Shown here: positions 1 through 12,813 of the stretch, one piece after another
Numbering within the stretch: position 1 is the stretch's first letter
Layout: each line of letters begins with the position of its first letter
Notes under the pieces: model-generated
Told to the model about the DNA's origin: nothing
Seen by the model: only the letters and a program-made list of their open reading frames with translations
The model's database searches: none
Source: Alphaproteobacteria bacterium
GTDB lineage: Bacteria; Pseudomonadota; Alphaproteobacteria; Rs-D84; CACZYB01
Direction: 5' to 3'
NCBI GenBank assembly: GCA_016297965.1
Contig: JAEDDP010000003.1
Span: 15,789-79,788, forward strand
DNA length: 64,000 nucleotides
Translations under genes and position numbers: made by a program

Positions 1-2009
1 TCGGTGCCATTTGATGTGGATTTTGACTTATCCTTCTTTTCCCCATTCTTTTTAAACTTTGGTTCACCAACGGTTACCGACTTTGCCAAACTGATAGGTG
101 CCAAAACTATATTTTTAATGTTTTTACCAAGGCTTATACCACCAGATGATATACCATAAGATGATGCAAATTCACCAAGTTTGTTATATACATAATATAT
201 ACAATACACTATAAATAGGAATTTTGAAACAGATAATAAATCAACCGGAATATTATTCGTAATTATTGATGTATCATTTTGTTCAATGGCCCGATTTAAT
301 ATTTGCAAAATGTTTTCCTTTGTATTCACAAAATAAAATGAATTAAGTAATGCAGAATTAAAAAGCGCAAATACGGCAAGATTTATCATGGTAAGTCCAA
401 ATTTTCGTGACATTTCAATAATACTTTTTATACTGGTACTAATCCCAACAATATTAAAGGCGTAACCAAACACCGCGAACGGCCAAATGATGGCGAGTTT
501 TAAAAAGTCAAGCAAACCATCAAGGACATAAAATGAAATCATAAGTCCGATTGAAAAATATAATCCAAAGATAACCACACCAAAAACAAAGCCCAAAAAT
601 TTGTGTTCCGATTTTGATGAAAAATTAAACAGGTCGCGGACAAGGACTTCGCCCATTGTCATTTGCCGTCCGTTTGCTTCAAGTGTGTTTGTTAAAAAGC
701 AAACTATATTTCCCATTGTATCCTTTGAAATAATGGATGAATTTTGTAATCGTTCAAGGCTTTTTGCTTGTTCAACCTTTATAATCGGAGGAACCGCCGT
801 TTCATTTTGTTCTGTACGATGTTCGGCATTTATTTTATCAACAACAGATGCTCCATCACAACTGTACCTTGTCCCAGAGGTAGTCCCAACCTGCATCACA
901 GAATCTGAAATTGCCATAGTTAGGTTAAGTACAGGTTCCATAGTCCAAGAAAACAATATTTTTGGTGGCACCAAAATAAGTGTGCAAACGACCAAAATTT
1001 TTTGTAATTGTTTTGCAATGCTTTTTGGATAGTAAGAAAAATCACTTTCAAATGGAAGCCCCTTAAATCCCTTAAAAAACTCAAATACCATAAAAAGACA
1101 TCCAAACACAAAAAGGAAAGTTACAATAATTCCGGAAAAATGGGAATACATATAATCAAACAAATATGATATTTCATTAAATATCATTACAATGTGAGGG
1201 CAAAGATAACAATGGCTGTTTCGGTTTACCATTTCCTGAATTGTTTTTGGTTTACATACACTATTGTTCCATTTTATGTTTGTTGTTTGATTGGATAGTG
1301 ATGAAAAATAAACCTCACGTGTTTGTTTGCCAAGCGCCCGATTGTCGAGAATTGTTGCAACGGTTTCACCAAAAATATTTTCCAACTTGTTTCCATTTAA
1401 CACAACCGGAGAAAGGACCGGTGGTAATGCAGAGATAAGTTTTCGGTATGTTGGAGCATCAGTTTCATAAAGACTGTTATCAACAGAATATGTTGCATCA
1501 TTTTGAATTATAGAGCAGGAACGGTACCCCTTATCCTTATTCAAAATATCACCAATTTTGTTTCCATCAAATATTGCATTGTTGGCTTCAAAATTTTTGT
1601 ATGTTGCAATTATGTATGGGGCATTTCCCCTTGCCTCCGCCACCAGGGATTTTATAAAATCATCGGTTGAATTTGGAGTGGCAAGGCGGGAATAATCATC
1701 CTCATCAATATATTCATTAACAAGGTCCGGTGTTAGTCCAATTTTTCGTAAATATGAAATGTTTTTTTGAACTTCACTTGGATAAAGCTTTTCATATTCG
1801 GAAAGCGAAATGTTGCCACGTTTTGATGAAATAAGGTATGAAATATCACTGCAATAATATGACGGTGAATATTCGGATAATACAACAGATGCCGATGGAA
1901 AATAAAATTTTGCATTATCATAGGTGCAATTTGACGGCGCGGAATATGCCCCCACAGAAAGGTAAAACATAGGAATAAAAAATAACAATGTATGTATAAA
2001 TTTTCTCAT
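1..2009 (-). CDS. Partial (3'-truncated at window start) large secreted/polytopic membrane protein; tentatively VirB6/TrbL-like T4SS paralog. ATG at 2009..2007; no stop before position 1 (>660 codons).
   Basis: Manual reverse-strand translation from the ATG at 2009 gives an uninterrupted ORF. It starts MRKFIHTLLFFIPMFYLSVGAYSAPS (signal peptide), followed by a ~300 aa hydrophilic domain and several hydrophobic helices. It is not in the ORF track because no stop lies within the window. It is separated by 1 nt from the upstream paralog-like gene 2010..3686. Confidence 0.5.
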   Translation of the reverse strand, partial: MRKFIHTLLFFIPMFYLSVGAYSAPSNCTYDNAKFYFPSASVVLSEYSPSYYCSDISYLISSKRGNISLSEYEKLYPSEVQKNISYLRKIGLTPDLVNEYIDEDDYSRLATPNSTDDFIKSLVAEARGNAPYIIATYKNFEANNAIFDGNKIGDILNKDKGYRSCSIIQNDATYSVDNSLYETDAPTYRKLISALPPVLSPVVLNGNKLENIFGETVATILDNRALGKQTREVYFSSLSNQTTNIKWNNSVCKPKTIQEMVNRNSHCYLCPHIVMIFNEISYLFDYMYSHFSGIIVTFLFVFGCLFMVFEFFKGFKGLPFESDFSYYPKSIAKQLQKILVVCTLILVPPKILFSWTMEPVLNLTMAISDSVMQVGTTSGTRYSCDGASVVDKINAEHRTEQNETAVPPIIKVEQAKSLERLQNSSIISKDTMGNIVCFLTNTLEANGRQMTMGEVLVRDLFNFSSKSEHKFLGFVFGVVIFGLYFSIGLMISFYVLDGLLDFLKLAIIWPFAVFGYAFNIVGISTSIKSIIEMSRKFGLTMINLAVFALFNSALLNSFYFVNTKENILQILNRAIEQNDTSIITNNIPVDLLSVSKFLFIVYCIYYVYNKLGEFASSYGISSGGISLGKNIKNIVLAPISLAKSVTVGEPKFKKNGEKKDKSKSTSNGT

Positions 2010-3686
2010 TTATGTATTTTCATCCCCAGTGTTATTTTTGTTTTTTCCAGAAAGTCTTTTTAAAAGATAGTCCAATTTTGACCCGCGGTCCTGTAATTTA
2101 GTTTCACCACTTTTCCGATAATCCTTAACCTCACGAATAACGGATTTTGTAAGGGATAGTGTTGAAAGTCCCATACTTTTTAATGGTTGAACGAGTGAGG
2201 ATTCGGAAACACTTGCCCCAAACCATCCGGCAAATTTACCGGATTGCATCATTATTGCACCGTCAAGACCAATCGCAATAATCACATATACAAAATACCA
2301 TGTTGTTCCGACAAGTCGGTTAAATTCCTCAATATTGCCGGCCTTTAATAAACCAATTAAGGTTTGTGGTGTTGTTATGTTTGTTCCGGATGCGGAAAAC
2401 ATACCGCCCAAAATCCAATCATTGACTTCGGCACACATAACCATCGCAATACAGGTAAAGATAAGACGAAGGGCAAATGAAAATGTGTTTGAAATGGATA
2501 CTGTCGCATATCGTCGTGTCGTTTCAAAAATATAACAAACGGCAAGCACCGGCATTAAAATAATCGCCACACCAAGGAACAACATATATTCAACAATGAT
2601 AAATGAGAAAAACATATTTATGAAAAACAAACCAATAACCAAACATACACCGGCAAGTCCCATACGTACATCCTCGCTTGCGAAAATATTGGCAATAACG
2701 GCCATCGTTGCGGGAATACTGTTGTTATCCTGTAAAACCTCACCAGCCTTATTTATACGACGTGTCTTTTTTCCACCGGATTTAATATCACTTAATTCAT
2801 CAGCCATCCGATCTTCAACATCCCTTAACCGTTTACGAATCTTTTTTTCCTGCTCCTTTGAGGTGGAATTTGAAAGCATATCATTTAACTTGTCCCGCTT
2901 TTTACCCATTTTTTTAAACCACTTTTTGGAACCAAAATTTTTTGCAAATGAACCACCAATAAAAAATGCACCACGAATAACAATATATTCAATGGCAGTT
3001 GCAATCATTGGTTTAAGCCCATATTCAAACATTGATATTCCCAAATCCATATAATCATAACGAAGGACATTAACCTCCCGCATTAGGCAAACCATATTAT
3101 TTTTTGTATTTTCAGAAAGGACGTGCCCTTCCTTATAAATAAGAGTGGTTGGCATATTTTGACACGACGATGGTATTTTATCCTTTTGAATTATTTTTTT
3201 ACGGATAAATTCACGACCAACGCCACTTCCAAAATCAAGTGTAATTTCAAATGTGTTTGCAAAAATGTTTCGTGGATTATTAACAATAAAAAGTCCAACA
3301 ACAGCAACGGTCAAAAAAATCTTTTTATAAATATCCTTTATGTAATCAGCATTAAATTTTGGTGCATCAGGGTAAAGCATTGTATCAAGTGTTGGTTGAA
3401 ATGCCAAATATGTTTTATATACAACCCATAGGGCAAGACAGACAGATAAAACCTTAAATATTTCAGATTGAAAATATTCAAATGTTTGAAACGATATTAT
3501 TGAGAATACATCATACATACTTTCAAAAACAGAACAGGTCCAACAATCCTTTAATAACGGATACATCTTTGTTGTCAAAACGAATAAGGCAATGGTTACT
3601 AAAATGGTAAATATCCATTTTATCCAAGAGGCGACCTTGCCAATGGATGAAAATAAATCAAATCCGCTTGATTGATTAGATGCCAA
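2010..3686 (-). CDS. Polytopic inner-membrane protein (558 aa), tentatively VirB6/TrbL-like T4SS component.
   Basis: ORF track. Several TM helices at the N-terminus, a central basic coiled-coil segment (KKMGKKRDKLNDML...RKRLRDVEDRMADEL), a second TM cluster, and a hydrophilic basic C-terminus. This architecture and the tandem arrangement with the downstream membrane gene resemble rickettsial rvhB6 paralog arrays. No conserved motif could be verified by eye. Confidence 0.45.
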   Translation of the reverse strand: MASNQSSGFDLFSSIGKVASWIKWIFTILVTIALFVLTTKMYPLLKDCWTCSVFESMYDVFSIISFQTFEYFQSEIFKVLSVCLALWVVYKTYLAFQPTLDTMLYPDAPKFNADYIKDIYKKIFLTVAVVGLFIVNNPRNIFANTFEITLDFGSGVGREFIRKKIIQKDKIPSSCQNMPTTLIYKEGHVLSENTKNNMVCLMREVNVLRYDYMDLGISMFEYGLKPMIATAIEYIVIRGAFFIGGSFAKNFGSKKWFKKMGKKRDKLNDMLSNSTSKEQEKKIRKRLRDVEDRMADELSDIKSGGKKTRRINKAGEVLQDNNSIPATMAVIANIFASEDVRMGLAGVCLVIGLFFINMFFSFIIVEYMLFLGVAIILMPVLAVCYIFETTRRYATVSISNTFSFALRLIFTCIAMVMCAEVNDWILGGMFSASGTNITTPQTLIGLLKAGNIEEFNRLVGTTWYFVYVIIAIGLDGAIMMQSGKFAGWFGASVSESSLVQPLKSMGLSTLSLTKSVIREVKDYRKSGETKLQDRGSKLDYLLKRLSGKNKNNTGDENT

Positions 3687-3690
3687 TTAT

Positions 3691-3954
3691 TTACTTCCTT
3701 TTTTCCGTAAGTTTTTGATGTAATTCAATCAAATATTTTGCAAATTTTGACGACATAAATTTACGAAAATAATAATCAATTTTATCTTGAAGTTCCCGGT
3801 TCTGGCTGTTCGCCTTTATATACAAAATTCCAAGGCAAAAAATAATCACAGACCAGGATATGAAAAGTATTAAATATTTAAGTTTTGCAATAAGGACAAT
3901 TCCAAATAAAATGCCAATCATTGACAATAACAACTTTAAATTTCCAGAAAACAT
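3691..3954 (-). CDS. Small two-TM membrane protein (87 aa), co-operonic with the VirB6-like genes.
   Basis: ORF track. Two hydrophobic helices, then a basic C-terminal tail. Only a 4-nt gap to the downstream gene. Confidence 0.4.
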   Translation of the reverse strand: MFSGNLKLLLSMIGILFGIVLIAKLKYLILFISWSVIIFCLGILYIKANSQNRELQDKIDYYFRKFMSSKFAKYLIELHQKLTEKRK

Positions 3955-3957
3955 TTC

Positions 3958-3986
3958 TTGCCTCTCTTTCCTTTTTAGTATATAAT
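3958..3986 (+). promoter_or_regulatory. Putative sigma70-type promoter TTGCCT-N17-TATAAT for the 4031..7609 operon.
   Basis: ttgcct at 3958-3963, a 17-nt spacer, and tataat at 3981-3986, about 45 nt upstream of the GTG at 4031. Confidence 0.35.
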
Positions 3987-4030
3987 AACCAATAGATTAA
4001 AAATAATCAAATAAAATAAGGTTTTTTATA

Positions 4031-5296
4031 GTGGAAAATAATATAAAATCTGATACTTATGACAAAAAAAATCCCTTTGAGTCAAAAGAGGCACAAAAAC
4101 TTGCTTCTTTGGCAATAATTGATAAGGTTCGTTATGCCATAAAAAATTTAACAAAAGAAAAAGCAGTTGAAGAAATTCAAAAACTTCGTGATACGGATAA
4201 GGCACGATATTTTACGGGTGCTTTTGACCTTGCCGATGATTTTTTGAATGGAAAAATTCCGGAAAATGGTCGCGATGGTTTCAATTCAAAATTACAAAAA
4301 ATTGAAGATGATACTTTGGATATGATTGACAACCTTTCGGATAGTATTATTGAGGAAGGAATAAAAAAACAGACAAAACAAGAAATTGTTGATGAAATTA
4401 TGAATGAAAATCCGGATGCAAATAGGGATGAGGTGGAGGCAACCGTAAACGAGGCAATAGAGGATGAAAACGAGGCCTTTATTGATGAAAAACAAACCTT
4501 GTCCGATGAACCGTTTAAGCTTTCCCGACCAAAGGTTGATAAGATTAAAAAGATTTATACCTATAAAGTTGAAGGAAAGATTAAATCGGGTATACCAGAC
4601 CTTGATAATTTTTTGGCGATAATACAACCCGCAATAAATCAGGTGATTATTCAACCATGGAAGCTTATTTATGGAACCGTGGATGCAAAAAATTATGCAT
4701 TTGAAAAATTTGAAAACTGGCAATCAAAAATAAACAACCTTAAAACCGCCTGGGGGACACTTGAAAAACTTGGGGCAATTCCAAAGGATAAAAAGTTTAA
4801 ATATTTCGGCGATATAAATAAAAAGGAAGATGAGATTGCGGGATATTTCAATGCGTATGCAACCGACATTATGAATGACAAGTTTGTTGATAGTGAGGAA
4901 TTGGCAGAAAAAGGTCCACGAAAGAAATTGTTTGATTATACCCGTGAACCCTTACCCGCAAGAAAGACAATTGATGACATCCTTTTGAACCTTATTAAAA
5001 ATAATTGTCGTGGCGAAGATGGAAAGATTAGCGAAGGCGGGGCAAAACTCCTTAAAGGATTCAGTATTATGGTTGACCTTTTTAATAAGGAAGACAAGGA
5101 CAAAATTCCATCCGATTTTACATGTGATGTTGGCTATATTATGCAGGAAGCAAAGGGACGGACATCATACACAGATCAAAAAATTGAAGATGTGGATGTT
5201 GTTGGTATGATTGATGCAAGGGATAAAAAGGCAAAGGATGATGACTACCTTAAAAACTTGGCTGAGGCATTAGGACAGTTAAATGGAGGTAAGTAA
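4031..5296 (+). CDS. Hypothetical acidic protein (421 aa), first gene of a 5-gene operon. Carries the N-terminal motif DDFLNGKIPEN (aa 69-79), shared with the 6377..6943 product.
   Basis: ORF track (GTG start). Highly charged, with no TM segment or signal peptide. No family recognised. Confidence 0.5.
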   Translation: MENNIKSDTYDKKNPFESKEAQKLASLAIIDKVRYAIKNLTKEKAVEEIQKLRDTDKARYFTGAFDLADDFLNGKIPENGRDGFNSKLQKIEDDTLDMIDNLSDSIIEEGIKKQTKQEIVDEIMNENPDANRDEVEATVNEAIEDENEAFIDEKQTLSDEPFKLSRPKVDKIKKIYTYKVEGKIKSGIPDLDNFLAIIQPAINQVIIQPWKLIYGTVDAKNYAFEKFENWQSKINNLKTAWGTLEKLGAIPKDKKFKYFGDINKKEDEIAGYFNAYATDIMNDKFVDSEELAEKGPRKKLFDYTREPLPARKTIDDILLNLIKNNCRGEDGKISEGGAKLLKGFSIMVDLFNKEDKDKIPSDFTCDVGYIMQEAKGRTSYTDQKIEDVDVVGMIDARDKKAKDDDYLKNLAEALGQLNGGK

Positions 5297-5299
5297 TTT

Positions 5300-6364
5300 A
5301 TGAAAAAAATATTGTATTTGCTTCTTATAACCGGATTTCTGATTGCACCAATTGGATATTGGCTTATCACATGGTGGGGGGTTGATTTCAGTCATTTTCC
5401 ATCGTTTGCAAGGTTCAAATACATTTATTCACAGGACAGATTTTTAAGTATTGCCACATCAATAAATTCAGTGTTGTACTTGTTTGCAATCTATAAAATT
5501 ATTTTTTCAAATCCAGCACCAAAACAAAAAAAAGATGTGGTGAATGAAAAAAATGTTGTCGTAAATAAAAATACAAATGACAACATTACAAAGTGGGACA
5601 ACCTTTATGGTCCAAACAGGGTTGTAAATGCCACATCACCTACCGCAACAGAAAGAAATGATGCTATTCCTACTCCTACACCTTCACAAAATAGTAGGGA
5701 ACAGCAAAAAGTTGTTGAACGGGTTGAGGTAGAGGTTGAACCACCACAGGCAGGGACAAAGGTGGAGAAAAGTAATATAATCAATATGACAGAACCAGTG
5801 TCGGCAATGGAAGTTTACCAAAATCAAATCAATAATATTTTGGAAAATAACGGATATGCGGGGATGGGTGCGTGTGTTATAAATAACATTGATGTTGATT
5901 TTATCGCCGTGGCGGAAAGTGATACTTTGGTTGTCGGAATAATAAATACTGAATACGGTGATATCATTGCAAATGAAACGCCAAGTTCGGATGGTGAAGT
6001 TCCATCATGGTTTACGAATGAACGGAAATATCCATCGCCAGTTTGGGAGATAAAGACCGTTCAAAAGGCTGTTAATAAAATGATAAATGAGGTACTTCCT
6101 CCGGACAATGGAATCGTGGTGAAACCTGTTGTTGTAATACCAAATGCGAATGTTGCCAACCAATTGGATATGGAGGCGAAATGGAATGAGATTGGGGTTT
6201 CCGTTACACGATTTTTAAATCATTCTGAGCTTCCAAACCTTATTGATGTGTTGCCAGATAAAAAGGGAACCGAGGTATTGGAAAGTTATAAAACTTTTGT
6301 AAAAACACTGATTAAATATTTTTCACAAAAGAATAGAAAGTATCCAATGAAAAAGGCCGGATAG
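5300..6364 (+). CDS. Membrane-anchored protein (2 N-terminal TM helices, Pro/Thr-rich linker) with a C-terminal NERD-like / PD-(D/E)xK-like nuclease-related domain.
   Basis: GGAGG RBS; the start lies 4 nt after the upstream stop. The C-terminal segment GMGACVINNIDVDFIAVAESDTLVVGIINTEYGDIIANE...W resembles the NERD core (DhL.v...gvfvIEvKnysG.i...W). The E/K positions look substituted. Confidence 0.45.
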   Translation: MKKILYLLLITGFLIAPIGYWLITWWGVDFSHFPSFARFKYIYSQDRFLSIATSINSVLYLFAIYKIIFSNPAPKQKKDVVNEKNVVVNKNTNDNITKWDNLYGPNRVVNATSPTATERNDAIPTPTPSQNSREQQKVVERVEVEVEPPQAGTKVEKSNIINMTEPVSAMEVYQNQINNILENNGYAGMGACVINNIDVDFIAVAESDTLVVGIINTEYGDIIANETPSSDGEVPSWFTNERKYPSPVWEIKTVQKAVNKMINEVLPPDNGIVVKPVVVIPNANVANQLDMEAKWNEIGVSVTRFLNHSELPNLIDVLPDKKGTEVLESYKTFVKTLIKYFSQKNRKYPMKKAG

Positions 6365-6376
6365 GAGGTAGATTAA

Positions 6377-6943
6377 ATGTTGTTTAGTGAGGAATATTAC
6401 AAGGACTTAATCGCTAAACTTGGGCTTCCGGAAATGCCTATATCAAAGGTGATTTATAAGGGGAAAAATCTTCTTAACCCACAAACATTTCGGGATGATT
6501 TTTTAAAAATTTCAAAAAAGCTTATGCAATTTGTTTCATACAACAATATCGGACAACTTATAGAGGCAGGAATACCAATTGAAACCATTGATGAACTTCA
6601 CAATGGAATTATTCCCGAAAATATTTCTATATATATAAAAAAGCCAATTGAATATGGGGGAAAGTTGGAATTTTCAAATATGTTTTTGATTAGGACACGA
6701 CCATTTAAAAACATACTTGATACCTTTATGGATGAACAAATTTTAACATTTAACCGCGAACATCCCGGATATGACCGGAACAATGGCTTTATTTTACCAA
6801 CCGAACTTTATATTCCCAATCCGGAGGGGTTAATCTTTCTTCCGGCGTTAAAGGGATTTGCCGGTGCCGGTGGAAATACAACCACCGATAAAATGTCCGA
6901 AATTGGCAGTACTATGTTTTTAAAAAATGATGGAAGGTTTTAA
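6377..6943 (+). CDS. Putative toxin-like protein (188 aa). Shares a positionally conserved N-terminal motif (DELHNGIIPEN, aa 72-82) with the 4031 product. Possible HH-dyad (LHH/AHH-like) nuclease relic; unverified.
   Basis: AGGAGG RBS. It sits immediately upstream of a SUKH-type immunity gene, with a 3-nt gap. No signal peptide. Confidence 0.45.
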   Translation: MLFSEEYYKDLIAKLGLPEMPISKVIYKGKNLLNPQTFRDDFLKISKKLMQFVSYNNIGQLIEAGIPIETIDELHNGIIPENISIYIKKPIEYGGKLEFSNMFLIRTRPFKNILDTFMDEQILTFNREHPGYDRNNGFILPTELYIPNPEGLIFLPALKGFAGAGGNTTTDKMSEIGSTMFLKNDGRF

Positions 6944-6945
6944 TT

Positions 6946-7389
6946 ATGTTGTATGAAAAAGTAAAAAAATTAAAATCTTTGGTGAAAAATTCGGTAGTTT
7001 TTGATGGAGCAAAACCGGCAAAATTGGACTTTACCAATGCGGTGCTTACAAATTCAAAAAATGCGACACTTCCGCCAGAATACATTGAATTTTTGAAAAT
7101 AACAAATGGAATGATTATTCCTCCGTATGAATTTTATGGAAGTGAAGTTATTGACCGAAAAGATTATAATTATAAATACCCAAGTATTATGGAAATAAAC
7201 AAAACATTTGTGCAAAATAAAAACCCATTGATTGAAAACAGGGTTGTTATTGGCAATGTATTTTTTGACACAATCATATATGATAAATTTGACAATAATT
7301 ATAAGATTGTAAACAGGATAAATTTTGAAATTATTAAAAGTTTTTCATCGTTTTCAAACTTATTGGATTATATAATTGAAAGTATGTAA
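6946..7389 (+). CDS. SUKH-1 / SMI1-KNR4 family immunity protein (147 aa).
   Basis: Motif ATLPPEYIEFLKITNGMIIPPYEFYG matches the SMI1/KNR4 signature (LP.dY..FL...NGg). Size ~140 aa. A C-terminal VIGNVFFDTIIYD segment resembles the family's conserved C-terminal block. Confidence 0.55.
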   Translation: MLYEKVKKLKSLVKNSVVFDGAKPAKLDFTNAVLTNSKNATLPPEYIEFLKITNGMIIPPYEFYGSEVIDRKDYNYKYPSIMEINKTFVQNKNPLIENRVVIGNVFFDTIIYDKFDNNYKIVNRINFEIIKSFSSFSNLLDYIIESM

Positions 7390-7399
7390 GGAATAAAAA

Positions 7400-7609
7400 A
7401 TGCTTGAAAAACATTCAATTACAATTATGGGACATCATACAAGTATTACCTTAGAGCCGGAATTTTGGCAGGAGTTAAAAAATATTGCCACAAGGGAAAA
7501 TAAATCCGTCGGCAAAATTATTTCCGAAATTGATGCACCGGATTTGAATGAAAACCTTTCAAGTAATATTCGTGTATTCGTTTTAAAAAAGGTTAAGGGA
7601 TTATTGTAA
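7400..7609 (+). CDS. Ribbon-helix-helix (RHH_4-type) small protein conserved in Alphaproteobacteria.
   Basis: HSITIMGHHTSITLEPEFWQELKNIA...NLSSNIRVFVL closely matches the alphaproteobacterial RHH family, which is often misannotated as aryl-sulfate sulfotransferase. Confidence 0.6.
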   Translation: MLEKHSITIMGHHTSITLEPEFWQELKNIATRENKSVGKIISEIDAPDLNENLSSNIRVFVLKKVKGLL

Positions 7610-10600
7610 AATTTCCTTTTTCTTCCTTAACAAATAAACAGGATTTATTTTTGATGTGATGGATGTTGTATCAACCTTTCCCGTCAAGTTATTCACAAAA
7701 CCCTTTAAATCATAACTGAACACTAAGTTATCCGGTGCAAGGTTTGATATATCAAAAATACTTTCTATATTAAGACTTTTTTGAATAAGGTTTCCCGACA
7801 ACATACCACTTATATTCATATTTGGAAGGGAAAGATTGAATGCGGAATCCTTTACATCCGCAGATGAAATTTCACCGTCCACAGAAAGTTTTGGAAATTC
7901 CATACTTCCACTTTTAAGGGAATTTTCAAGTGTATATATAACGTTGTTTGTCGTTATATTGGCAAGCTTTAATATATTCGCAAGTATTGTTGAATAATCA
8001 CTTATACCGGAAATTTTTCCATTTAATATATCAATGGAATAATTACCTGACAAATTTGATAAAAGCTGGTATGCATTCATTCCGTTTGTTTTAAACTTTA
8101 TATCCGCATTCAATGTGCCGGATACAAGGTTCAAAAGTTCGTTATTCATTATATCATTTGGAATTTGATAATTTGAGATTTTAACTGTTCCATCAAACAT
8201 ATTTGAATTTAAAACTTCGGAATTCAAATCAATTTCATAATTGTGTTTTTTAAGTTTAAATTTAAAACTTCCTGGATTGGTGGAATTTTTCAAATCAAAT
8301 ATTACATCCTTGTAATTATTGCCGTTATATTCAGAAATATTTTTTGCATTAAGGTATATGTTGTACGGAATATCACGAATGATTTTAAGAAGGAAATCAA
8401 CATATCCATCGGTGTCCTTTATCCTTTTTATAACATCCTTTATATTGAAATTTTGCGTGTTAAGGGCAACAGAAGTTTCAAAACCACTTCGGTCCTTTTT
8501 TCGTAAAATTTCGCCGGTAAATACATTATTTTTGATACGGAATTCCATATCCTTTATATTATACCCCTCTACCCTCGCCTTTAATGAAAATGGGATATTG
8601 TCGTAAAAATAATTTATCAAATTATCACTTATAAAGCCCCAAGAGAACAAAAATCCCTTTAATTCATTATGCGATAGTTCAATTGTGTACGAAGCGTCGG
8701 TGTCAAGCAATTTACCGTTAACCTTTATTTTTATATCGTTTAATTTCGCATCAACCTGAGATATTGGATTTGACGCACTTCCGTTTAAAAGTATGTCAAT
8801 TCGGTTTACACCATTGGCAATCATTGTTTCAATAAATTGATTTTTTATGAATGGTATTGATATACCCTTTAACGTAGAAGATGAAATGTTATAGGAAAAG
8901 TTTTTAAATTCCCCAGCGGAACTTAAAATATTAAACAACTCCCCTTTCATCGCACTTTGGTATCCCTGATGATTAAAGGTTAGATTTTTAAGGTTAAGGC
9001 TTCCGTCCAAATATGAAGTATTAAGTTTGAAATTGTCATAGTTTGAATTATTCATCCGCAACTTTTTTATCATAACATTCAAACTAAAACTGCTTGACCG
9101 GATAAGGGAAAGTTTTGAAATTATAAATGAAAGATCAATGTTTTCCTTTATCAACTTATCCAAATTAACAGAATCAGATTTGATATTTAGGACATAATCC
9201 GTTTTTCCGTTTTCGGTTTTGGATGTAAAATATCCGGAAATAAGGTTGCCCCCAACCTCGGCCGTCATATTCAAAATATTTATAAAGCTTTTTGACATAG
9301 TTATGTCGGCATTAAGTCGGTTAAACTGTAAATATGGAGTGAAAATATTTTTTATGTCCCGTGAAAGGTTGCTTGCAACACGAACATCAATTGTCAAATC
9401 ATCGTTTAGGACATTTAGGATTTTACCACTTATTTTAATTGGCTTTTTATTTATGGAATAGCCCAAATCAGAAATATTTATTCCATTGAATACGTCCCCG
9501 TAAAATATAGGCGAGGTATTTAGGCGGAAATCCGTAATCATACTTTTTGTTGCAACAATATTTTTTGCGGTAATGTTAAAGTTTGCATATTGGAACAATG
9601 ACAATAATTTTTGTGATTTAAGTAATACATTTACCGGATTATAGGCATCATTTGCCTTTATATCAATAAACTTTGCAACAGGGAAAGTTGAGAAATCAAT
9701 GGAAAAATTAACACCCGAACGGTCAATACCATTTTTGCCATCAGGTTGCATTGCAAATGGAATAACACCTTTAAACTTTCCAACGACTTCGGAACCTTCT
9801 ATACTTCCATTGTTTAACAATATTGAGTTAGGAGAATTTTGAATATTAAATTTCAACTTTACCGAATCATTGAAAAATTGGGTATTTGGAAGTTCAACCG
9901 ATTTTATAAACTTTTTTGTGAATTTCAAAAGGCTGTCCGTTGTTATGCCAACATTTCCGGAAATTGTTTTTTCGCCCTCCTTTACAATTATGGTAAAGTC
10001 ATTATCAAGTTTGCTTTTTCCGGTAATGTAGTTAAAGTTTGTAACCGCATTAAAATTGTCGCTGTCAATATAGGAAAATAAGAATGAAAGGTTATCAACT
10101 TCCCCATCTTCAAAATAAAAGGAACCATTACCCTTTACCTTTGAACCTTCAACGGTTTTAAAACGAACGTTAATGTTTGTGATAAACGAGTCCGCCAATA
10201 CGACACGACCATTTTTTATTGTTACCTCCTTAAAAATCTTTCCATTCAATAAGGTATCAAGGTTTTCGTATTGTGAATTTTTGTATACATTTTCATAAAA
10301 GGTTGCATCCATAACGGCAATTTTGTTAATTACGAAATTGTCACTGAAAAAATTAAGAAATCCGGTATTGATGAATATCTTTGATGCGTTAATAAAAGCA
10401 CCGGGACTTTTTTCATCCATAGAACTTATTTCAACATTTCGTAAAATAACGGATGGGCGAGGAAGAATAGCAAATGAGATATCCCCTTTAATTGATGCAC
10501 GAAAACCAAATGTGCTTTGGATTTTATTTTCAATATAGGATTTTTGATTATTCAAATTTATAAAGTTTGGTAAAACATATAATGCAAAAAAGAATGCAAA

Positions 10601-10642
10601 TACTGACAATATCAACTTATAGTGTTTTTTCAATGAATCCAT
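7601..10642 (-). CDS. AsmA-family large envelope protein (~1013 aa from the ATG at 10642).
   Basis: N-terminal TM anchor, then FGFRASIKGDISFAILPRPSVILRNVEISS, typical of the AsmA N-terminal region. Long beta-rich body. GAGGGG RBS before the ATG at 10642; the track's longer start at 10690 is less likely. Confidence 0.55.
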   Translation of the reverse strand: MDSLKKHYKLILSVFAFFFALYVLPNFINLNNQKSYIENKIQSTFGFRASIKGDISFAILPRPSVILRNVEISSMDEKSPGAFINASKIFINTGFLNFFSDNFVINKIAVMDATFYENVYKNSQYENLDTLLNGKIFKEVTIKNGRVVLADSFITNINVRFKTVEGSKVKGNGSFYFEDGEVDNLSFLFSYIDSDNFNAVTNFNYITGKSKLDNDFTIIVKEGEKTISGNVGITTDSLLKFTKKFIKSVELPNTQFFNDSVKLKFNIQNSPNSILLNNGSIEGSEVVGKFKGVIPFAMQPDGKNGIDRSGVNFSIDFSTFPVAKFIDIKANDAYNPVNVLLKSQKLLSLFQYANFNITAKNIVATKSMITDFRLNTSPIFYGDVFNGINISDLGYSINKKPIKISGKILNVLNDDLTIDVRVASNLSRDIKNIFTPYLQFNRLNADITMSKSFINILNMTAEVGGNLISGYFTSKTENGKTDYVLNIKSDSVNLDKLIKENIDLSFIISKLSLIRSSSFSLNVMIKKLRMNNSNYDNFKLNTSYLDGSLNLKNLTFNHQGYQSAMKGELFNILSSAGEFKNFSYNISSSTLKGISIPFIKNQFIETMIANGVNRIDILLNGSASNPISQVDAKLNDIKIKVNGKLLDTDASYTIELSHNELKGFLFSWGFISDNLINYFYDNIPFSLKARVEGYNIKDMEFRIKNNVFTGEILRKKDRSGFETSVALNTQNFNIKDVIKRIKDTDGYVDFLLKIIRDIPYNIYLNAKNISEYNGNNYKDVIFDLKNSTNPGSFKFKLKKHNYEIDLNSEVLNSNMFDGTVKISNYQIPNDIMNNELLNLVSGTLNADIKFKTNGMNAYQLLSNLSGNYSIDILNGKISGISDYSTILANILKLANITTNNVIYTLENSLKSGSMEFPKLSVDGEISSADVKDSAFNLSLPNMNISGMLSGNLIQKSLNIESIFDISNLAPDNLVFSYDLKGFVNNLTGKVDTTSITSKINPVYLLRKKKEILQ

Positions 10643-10764
10643 TTTTCCCCTCTTAAAATGCCAAAGTAAGGTATTTATTTCCTTTGACAATCCCCTGTTA
10701 TGTTCTATATTATATTTATACTTTTATTAAGACAAGAAAAAAATATATTAAAGAGATTTTTAAA

Positions 10765-12813
10765 ATGGGTAAAAATCCTATTCTTTCATCGTTGTATAAC
10801 AAGCTTCCGGCGGGAACTCCGGCTGGGTTTCAAATGGTATCACAATTTACCCCAAGTGGCGACCAGCCATCGGCAATAAAGGAGCTTGTAAAGGGAATAA
10901 ACGAAGGTAAAAAGGATCAGGTATTACTTGGTATTACCGGTTCGGGTAAAACATTTACAATGGCAAATGTTATTCAACAATGTCAACGTCCAACCCTTAT
11001 AATGGCACCTAACAAAATTTTGGCGGCACAACTTTATCAGGAAATGTTGGAATTGTTTCCGAATAACCACGTTGAATACTTTGTTTCATACTATGACTAT
11101 TATCAACCGGAAGCATATATTCCAAAAACCGACACCTATATTGAAAAGGACAGTGCAATAAACGAACAAATTGACCGACTTCGTCATTCGGCGACAAGAT
11201 CCCTTTTGGAATATCGTGATGTTATTATTGTGGCTTCGGTATCGTGTATTTATGGTTTGGGTTCACCGGAGGCATACTCCTCTATGAGTTTGACATTAGA
11301 GGAAGGTCAGACAATACCACTTGATGAAGTACTTAAAACACTTACCTCTATGCAATATGAACGAAACGATATTGCACTTGACCGTGGAACATTCCGACTT
11401 CGCGGGGATACATTGGAAGTTTTTCCAGTCCATTTGGAGGATAAGGCGTGGCGGTATTCTTTTTTTGGGGATGAAATTGAAACGATTGCCGAATTTGATA
11501 CCCTTACTGGGAAAAGGATGCTTTCACTTCGGTCAACAACAATATATCCGTCAAGCCATTATGTAACACCGGGACCTGCCCTTTCAAATGCAATTGTTGG
11601 AATAAAGGAAGAACTTCGCGAACGGTTGGAATATTTTACAAAAAATCACCAACTTCTTGAAGAACAGAGGTTAAGGGAAAAGACCAATTTTGATATAGAG
11701 ATGTTGGAAACCACCGGATATTGTAAAAGCATTGAAAATTATTCAAGGTATTTGACCGGAAGACCGGCCGGCGCGCCACCACCAACTTTGTTTGAATACC
11801 TTCCGGATGATGCGTTAGTGTTTATTGATGAATCGCACGTTTCCGTTCCTCAAATTGGTGGTATGTATAATGGGGACCGTGCAAGAAAGACTACACTTGC
11901 CCAATATGGGTTCCGTCTTCCATCGTGTCTTGACAACCGACCATTAAAGTTTGCCGAATGGAATGAATTTAGGGGGCAAACGATATATATTTCCGCAACG
12001 CCGGGTGATTGGGAGCTTGAACAAACAGGTGGAAAATTTACGGAACAGCTTATCCGACCAACAGGACTTTTGGATCCAGAAATTGAGGTTCGTCCATTGG
12101 AAAATCAGGTGGATGACCTTATGCATGAATGCCGAAAGGTTGCCGCATCCGGCGGACGGGTACTTTGTACGACACTGACAAAGAAAATGGCGGAACAGCT
12201 TACCGATTATTTATCCGAATATGGAATAAAGGTTCGCTATCTTCATTCAGATATTGACACATTAGAACGTGTGGAAATTATTCGCGATTTGCGTATGGGA
12301 AAATTTGATGTGTTGGTTGGAATAAACCTTCTTCGTGAAGGATTGGATATTCCGGAATGTAAGCTTGTTGCCATACTTGATGCGGACAAGGAAGGTTTCC
12401 TTCGTTCGGAACGTTCGCTTATCCAAACAATTGGACGTGCCGCCCGAAATGCCGAAGGTCGGGTAATACTTTATGCCGATAAAATAACCGGTTCAATGAA
12501 GTATGCAATTGATGAAACAAACAGACGTAGGGCAAAACAAATTGCATATAATACGGCACACAATATAACACCAACAACCGTATCAAAAAAGATTGCGTCA
12601 AATATTGCAGATATGGATTATGTTGATATACAGGAAAATCCAACCGCAAACAGGAAAAAGTTCAAATTTAAATCTCCGGATGATATTCAAAAGATCATCA
12701 AAAAGAAGGAAAAGGAGATGTTGGAACTTGCAAACAACCTTGAATTTGAAAAGGCAACAGAGATACGTGATGAAATTAAGGAGCTTAAAAAACTTTCTCT
12801 TGAATTAGAGTAA
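10765..12813 (+). CDS. uvrB: Excinuclease ABC subunit B.
   Basis: Strong UvrB homology throughout ([14 protein letters not shown] Walker A, helicase motifs, C-terminal UVR domain [17 protein letters not shown]). The true start is the ATG at 10765 (MGKNPILSS...); the track's 10684 start is an upstream extension. Confidence 0.9.

Follow-up and report, generated by a model that had tools for sequence, protein, structure and literature searches.

The DNA analyzed here is a stretch of 64,000 nt (the window; all feature positions are numbered from its first letter). On its plus strand, at 6946..7389, lies an open reading frame that runs from ATG to stop and encodes 147 amino acids, the length given in an earlier note on this DNA, which had read the gene as coding for a SUKH-1 (SMI1/KNR4-like) immunity protein from a hallmark peptide, NSKNATLPPEYIEFLKITNGMIIPPYEFYGSE. 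The peptide is present at residues 36 to 67, and the assignment to the family is correct. Pfam model PF09346 (SMI1_KNR4) matches residues 39 to 140 with 29.9 bits (E = 9e-7; gathering score, 25.4), which is far beyond chance; PF14568 (SUKH_6), the second profile against which the note had proposed to check the protein, reaches 25.5 bits, just under its threshold of 27. The protein also matches NCBIfam model NF038335 (YrhA/YPO0640 family) over residues 5 to 146 with 63.5 bits (cut-off, 55). Membership in the YrhA family is taken from this curated model; hhalign comparisons of the SUKH family with single YrhA sequences gave weak alignments. The AlphaFold2 model of the protein, built with 11 homologues, is of moderate confidence only (pLDDT, 63.6; pTM, 0.63), and the fold that it predicts is the alpha+beta fold of SUKH proteins, the structural outcome that the note had also expected.

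The SUKH gene is the fourth of five closely spaced genes (p421, p354, p188, SUKH, and RHH_4) that are separated by 3, 12, 2, and 10 nt and are probably co-transcribed as one operon. No terminator was found on the plus strand inside the operon, and a promoter scan was uninformative (23 promoter-like sites versus 19.8 expected). The first gene, p421 (4031..5296, plus strand), has no match in Pfam or NCBIfam. The second, p354 (5300..6364, plus strand), encodes what by eye is an N-terminal hydrophobic segment, followed by a linker that varies and, at the C terminus, a conserved domain of about 170 residues. It is syntenic in all related loci and has no match in Pfam or PDB, and a large homology search returned only proteins of the same lineages, with every source-named homologue annotated as hypothetical. 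The operon closes with the gene for a 69-residue ribbon-helix-helix protein, RHH_4 (7400..7609, plus strand; PF13467, 79.6 bits), the end of which overlaps the 3' end of a convergent asmA-like gene (7601..10690, minus strand) by 9 nt. In the entire clade to which the window belongs, including the distant loci L004, L005, and L032, RHH_4 comes right after SUKH; in a second, virD4-linked clade described below it does not. GC content is about 30% over SUKH, RHH_4, and asmA (6500..10500) and about 41 to 43% in uvrB (11000..12500), and no clear island boundary at the operon itself can be seen from it.

Divergent from the operon, the minus strand carries an array of genes for membrane proteins that resemble components of type IV secretion systems (T4SS). 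At its head stands a gene for a hydrophobic protein of 87 residues (3691..3954, minus strand) without a significant family match, which most related loci have at the corresponding place, at 45 to 66% identity. It is followed by a VirB6/TrbL-like membrane protein of 558 residues (2010..3686, minus strand) that matches PF04610 (TrbL) with 26.0 bits (gathering score, 25.9); its orthologue in locus L006 scores 34.2 bits. A second member of the array, of at least 669 residues (2..2009, minus strand), is encoded by a reading frame that runs off the start of the window and shows weak paralogy to the 558-residue protein (tblastn, 23% identity over 301 residues, E = 0.003). Apart from the gene at 2010..3686, no member of the array has a Pfam match. 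In L006, four VirB6-like membrane proteins stand in a row; the window holds at least two consecutive ones (2..3686, minus strand). Such arrays resemble the rvh type IV system of Rickettsiales, in which virB6 is duplicated.

The direct upstream partner of the SUKH gene is p188 (6377..6943, plus strand), which ends 2 nt before the SUKH ATG and encodes 188 residues. Searches of Pfam, NCBIfam, and PDB sequences by profile found no family match for p188, and scanning its family members one by one gave none either; no Pfam HNH model matches p188. The roughly 30 close homologues are all 181 to 207 residues long and come from metagenome-assembled genomes (MAGs) of uncultured Alphaproteobacteria or "Rickettsiales" from human, ruminant, and termite guts; all those with a source name are annotated as hypothetical protein. 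Homology surfaced only when p188 was compared specifically with YhhZ and when the family profile was run against 1.84 billion proteins. Since the SUKH protein matches the YrhA family, the yhhZ-yrhA locus of Escherichia coli K-12 was taken for this comparison. BLASTP of p188 against YhhZ gave an E value of 7e-5, and hhalign aligned the p188 family with YhhZ at 92.7% probability (E = 4.2e-7; 98 columns over the HNH domain) and with an HNH endonuclease of IncHI2 plasmids at 95.3% (E = 2.2e-8; 123 columns). The family profile found 220 relatives among 1.84 billion representative proteins, and canonical toxins (Rhs, PAAR-like, PT-HINT, and WXG100/PT-TG) were matched at E values of 7e-9 to 9e-6. In these canonical relatives, the domain sits at the C terminus, behind PT-HINT, Tox-PAAR-like, RHS, WXG100/PT-TG, or Hcp regions, and in E. 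coli K-12, on IncHI2 plasmids, and in a B. subtilis LXG toxin it is followed by an annotated YrhA family gene. Judged from these gene orders, the pairing of the toxin domain with YrhA is general across phyla, and the window conforms to it, with the YrhA-type gene located 3' of a gene that aligns with YhhZ and the IncHI2 protein.

Taken together, the hhalign and profile comparisons with YhhZ, the plasmid protein, and the canonical toxins indicate that residues ~17 to 155 of p188 correspond to a whole toxin domain. The predicted structure is consistent with this, with strands at residues 83 to 87 and 102 to 106 and a helix at 107 to 128, the beta-beta-alpha topology of the His-Me finger metal core. 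By homology, then, p188 descends from a YhhZ/Hcp-ET1-type HNH DNase toxin domain. The note's prediction that a toxin gene would lie immediately 5' of SUKH is thereby borne out in so far as the partner is toxin-derived. As a separate candidate for the toxin domain we considered Tox-REHH, which has been described as lacking detectable similarity to known families (bioRxiv 10.64898/2026.09.22.753552), whereas the canonical relatives of p188 give sub-threshold matches to PF01844; no link to it was found.

What p188 has lost are the catalytic residues. His-Me finger nucleases, among them colicins E7 and E9, use the second histidine of the His-His pair as the general base, which the reaction needs, and bind metal through the other histidines. 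The degenerate core of p188 (residues 80 to 115, PENISIYIKKPIEYGGKLEFSNMFLIRTRPFKNILD; 6614..6721, plus strand) aligns with YhhZ PLNYNVHHKLSLDDGGTNDFENLVLIENEPYHKVF and carries Tyr86-Ile87 in place of His-His and Lys111 in place of a further His; the structural Asn101 alone is kept. Across the clade, the general-base position holds Ile, Leu, Met, Thr, or Phe, and the metal-binding positions hold Tyr or Phe (residue 86) and Lys or Arg (residue 111). Of the 22 residues that are invariant across the family, not one is a His or Cys. When 178 relatives were aligned to the p188 family profile for a census, three tiers emerged. Canonical toxins read HH...H at positions 86-87...111 and lack a Gly-rich tail. 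Intermediates read H-[LIMV]...H...H at positions 86-87...111...115, so that the general base is lost and the putative metal ligands are kept, and usually end in a GGKD tail. The clade of the window reads [YFLC]-[ILMTF]...[KRL]...[DN] at the same four positions, with all histidines gone and a GGND tail. Two proteins of 468 to 519 residues, P0097 and P0101, contain the domain twice, degenerate at the N terminus (RH...G) and intact at the C terminus (HH...H), with a charged linker between the copies. Given the replacement of both general-base and metal-binding histidines, the canonical HNH reaction is not expected of p188, and we infer that the protein would be devoid of nuclease activity.

What the family seems to have gained is a C-terminal tail. 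The invariant residues of the family lie most closely together (G165, G166, N167, D171, M173, I176, G177, and T179) in residues 156 to 188 of p188 (6842..6940, plus strand), which carry the motif GAGGNTTTDKMSEIGSTMFL and of which residues 160 to 188 are predicted to be disordered (pLDDT < 50). In the census, the tail is specific to forms without the general-base histidine and is absent from the canonical His-bearing toxins.

The pair is constant across the 31 loci that carry a p188-like gene. A SUKH gene starts between -4 and +13 nt behind it in 28 of them, and in the remaining three the contig ends less than 150 nt downstream of the p188-like gene. Reading frames are intact in 31 of 31, and no orphan SUKH gene occurs among these loci. 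All seven downstream partners that were compared with the YrhA model match it at E values of 3e-4 or better; the scores of orthologous partners range from 20.5 to 71.8 bits, of which one (71.8) reaches the cut-off of 55. The surrounding block, with the VirB6-like array and the 87-residue gene on the minus strand and the five operon genes from p421 to RHH_4 on the plus strand, after which asmA and uvrB usually come, keeps its order in the species-level MAGs with contigs that reach the flanks and in the distant locus L032. Throughout, the pair is single-copy, and it is syntenic in every contig long enough to include the flanks. A tblastn search of plasmids with p188 found no copy.

Within this block, p188 is among the most conserved members. 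Identity to the window is 85 to 89% for UvrB, 50 to 82% for p188, 49 to 76% for RHH_4, 28 to 60% for SUKH, 22 to 51% for p354, and 27 to 41% for p421, the fastest-evolving member, the length of which ranges from 421 to 921 residues in relatives. Estimates of dN/dS are 0.04 to 0.10 for p188, 0.12 to 0.32 for SUKH, and 0.02 to 0.055 for UvrB, and in the least saturated pair of loci (L017/L018) they are 0.044, 0.124, and 0.021, respectively. The former toxin, under strong purifying selection, is thus more constrained than its supposed immunity protein. Polymorphic toxins are known by variable tips, orphan immunity genes, and a patchy or mobile distribution; what we find instead is one conserved pair across related MAGs and, at 188 residues, a p188 without an N-terminal secretion or trafficking domain. 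Neither p188 nor SUKH, as far as these comparisons reach, shows arms-race behavior, polymorphism, or mobility. To all appearances, the pair has become fixed, and is stably inherited, in one lineage of gut and termite Alphaproteobacteria that are uncultured.

A second connection to type IV secretion is provided, and strongly so, by the sister clade that carries the intermediate H-[LIMV] forms. In six loci, which represent five distinct proteins (L023, L025, L026, L027, and L028/L029, the last two with the same protein), the p188-like gene stands immediately 3' of virD4, identified by PF02534, PF10412, and PF12696. A SUKH gene follows in L023, L026, L027, and L028/L029, and in L025 the contig ends first; the gaps between virD4, the p188-like gene, and SUKH are 0 to 25 nt. 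In L023 and L027, a p354 homologue lies 5' of virD4, which defines a recurring set of p354-like gene, (virD4), p188-like gene, and SUKH. No virD4 was found in the window or in the loci of its close relatives. Full-text literature searches turned up no account of a link between VirD4 and a SUKH or KNR4 protein, nor of such a module. The virD4-linked proteins P0055, P0064, P0066, P0071, P0057, and P0052 carry short N-terminal Trp/acidic motifs (MWDWS..., ...SWEDLF), which may be short linear interaction motifs, and long low-complexity Pro/Gln-rich linkers between these motifs and the degenerate HNH domain. In L024, a 207-residue protein encoded near the pair (3612..4235, minus strand) has a weak, sub-threshold match to TrbC/VirB2 pilins (18.3 bits).

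How, then, should the SUKH protein be understood? Of the label "SUKH immunity protein," the family and fold stand, and the function of immunity against a cognate toxin is not established. Against that function speak the loss, throughout the clade of the partner, of the histidines that serve HNH domains as general base and metal ligands, the missing secretion or trafficking domain, and a pair that is single-copy, syntenic, under purifying selection, and not mobile. Because the histidines are lost, no trafficking domain is present, and the pair is not polymorphic, it is more likely that SUKH has been kept as a binding partner or chaperone for a domesticated ex-toxin than that it guards against an active nuclease. 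The explanation that we favor, with moderate confidence, is that toxin and immunity protein were domesticated as a pair and now work with a type IV secretion system. SUKH would bind p188 through the ancestral immunity/toxin interface, as a chaperone or keeper, and the heterodimer would work with the type IV secretion coupling machinery, with p188 acting either as a substrate recognized by its C-terminal tail or as an adaptor. Both the physical binding of p188 to SUKH and any role in type IV secretion are what we infer from sequence and gene order. More tentatively, the pair and the p354 membrane protein might together constitute a conserved alphaproteobacterial T4SS accessory module, in which the tail would allow p188 to work with VirD4 as an adaptor or as a core substrate.

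Of the alternatives, a classical effector/immunity pair survives best, and we regard it as possible, if on the unlikely side. Here, p188 would be toxic by a non-canonical catalysis or by binding DNA or protein, it would be delivered to competitors, probably by a T4SS, and SUKH would protect the producer. Both proteins do descend from a toxin/immunity pair of which the type VI secretion (T6SS) form, Hcp-ET1/ETi1, has been characterized for HNH-DNase activity and immunity (review PMC6099711), and the SUKH gene is never lost where this can be checked, as expected if p188 is harmful. So strict a retention of the immunity gene might reflect a p188 that still does harm by a non-HNH activity. The conserved extreme C-terminal tail would fit the C-terminal signals of T4SS substrates, and virD4 is adjacent in the sister clade. 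However, the histidines have all been replaced, by Tyr/Phe, Ile/Leu/Met, and Lys/Arg, p188 evolves more slowly than SUKH and without a sign of diversification, and polymorphism, orphan immunity genes, and mobility are lacking. The charge of the SUKH proteins points the same way, in a small sample: the window protein is not acidic, with a net charge of +1.5, whereas canonical YrhA proteins carry -14 and -19. SUKH partners of His-less forms range from -9 to +1.5, a trend only, from few sequences.

Less probable, in our estimate, is a conserved cytoplasmic two-protein module that is unrelated to type IV secretion and found near VirB6-like and virD4 genes through hitch-hiking, possibly with a role in DNA or protein binding or in regulation together with the RHH_4 protein. 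In its favor, the pair has other neighbors elsewhere, namely clpB and hupB in L024 and L033 and, in L021, a large nuclease/helicase-like gene along with a pal-like one; in "Ca. Enterousia" (L022), a p354-like gene alone lies upstream and no T4SS genes are nearby. A gene for a DNA-binding RHH_4 protein follows SUKH throughout the window clade, and the T4SS link of that clade consists of a single VirB6/TrbL match just above threshold (26.0 versus 25.9 bits). Weighing against it, the pair is flanked by a T4SS gene in each of two clades, and by a different one in each (virD4 or virB6-like), the order virD4, p188-like gene, SUKH recurs across the six loci and their five distinct proteins along with the p354 homologue, and a weak VirB2/TrbC-like gene lies near the pair in L024. 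Finally, a decaying relic without current function, although the loss of catalytic residues is expected of a degenerating toxin, is very improbable and effectively refuted by purifying selection and deep conservation: reading frames are intact in every locus, the dN/dS of p188 is close to that of UvrB, the invariant residues include a tail that canonical toxins lack, and the pair persists down to 28% identity.

That the gene encodes a SUKH protein is a routine identification; the apparently disarmed, co-domesticated, and T4SS-linked pair was unexpected. Toxin/immunity pairs usually count as weapons that are mobile and evolve fast, and here both halves would have been kept after disarming, with the former toxin evolving almost as slowly as a housekeeping gene, beside T4SS genes, in poorly known gut Alphaproteobacteria. 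If the T4SS link is functional, the pair offers new candidate coupling-protein partners in rvh-like systems, the substrates and adaptors of which are largely unknown, and a bacterial parallel to the exapted dead HNH toxin of teneurins. Should the accessory-module reading in particular be true, of which we are doubtful, a nuclease toxin and its immunity protein would have been domesticated jointly in a module previously unrecognized. For annotation, the case is a warning that a SUKH gene next to a small open reading frame does not automatically represent an active toxin/immunity system.

The closest known counterpart of the domesticated pair that we propose is yhhZ-yrhA of E. coli, in which both partners are homologous to p188 and SUKH, the gene order is the same, and the coupling is similarly tight, with the two genes overlapping by 4 nt. 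YhhZ consists of an Hcp domain followed by the C-terminal HNH domain. It keeps His-His...Asn...His and is fused to Hcp for delivery by the T6SS, whereas p188 has neither these histidines nor Hcp or another trafficking domain, ends in an additional conserved tail, and shows linkage to T4SS rather than T6SS genes. A tblastn search with an intermediate member pointed to a second counterpart, with matches in 459 plasmids, 434 of them predicted to be conjugative and of IncHI2 type, which encode a 191-residue HNH endonuclease immediately followed by an annotated YrhA family protein. On the Salmonella IncHI2 plasmid pMS114_1 (L030), the HNH/YrhA pair (3815..4906) adjoins a transfer gene with a traG N-terminal domain. 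Like p188 and SUKH, the IncHI2 pair combines a small HNH protein without a trafficking domain, a YrhA gene immediately 3', and an adjacent conjugal transfer gene. Unlike p188, the plasmid protein keeps the catalytic histidines, looks like a truncated yhhZ product, and lacks the Gly-rich tail, and the pair is plasmid-borne and belongs to Gammaproteobacteria.

SUKH proteins were described as immunity partners of nuclease toxins by Zhang, Iyer, and Aravind in 2011 (PMC3113570), with YobK of B. subtilis as a SUKH-1 example. SUKH-1 polymorphic systems have recombining toxin tips and often several immunity genes, in contrast to the one conserved pair of invariant architecture in the window. On the side of type IV secretion, VirE2/VirE1 and IcmS/IcmW are substrate/chaperone or coupling-protein adaptor pairs. 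The tails of RalF and RARP-2 bind RvhD4, and cREM-5/cREM-5p of Rickettsia is a two-gene module that interacts with RvhD4 (PMC11077975). As an analogy only, p188/SUKH resembles VirE2/VirE1, IcmS/IcmW, and cREM-5/cREM-5p in being a small two-gene module located by, or working with, the coupling protein; again by analogy only, the function of p188 would resemble that of these substrate/adaptor pairs in depending on a C-terminal region. [quoted passage not shown] 2012, PMC3482391). There, an HNH toxin domain that lost catalysis was kept for a non-nuclease role, as p188 would have been. The teneurin domain, however, is a eukaryotic one from another HNH clade and did not keep an immunity partner, whereas in the lineage of the window the immunity partner would have been domesticated as well.
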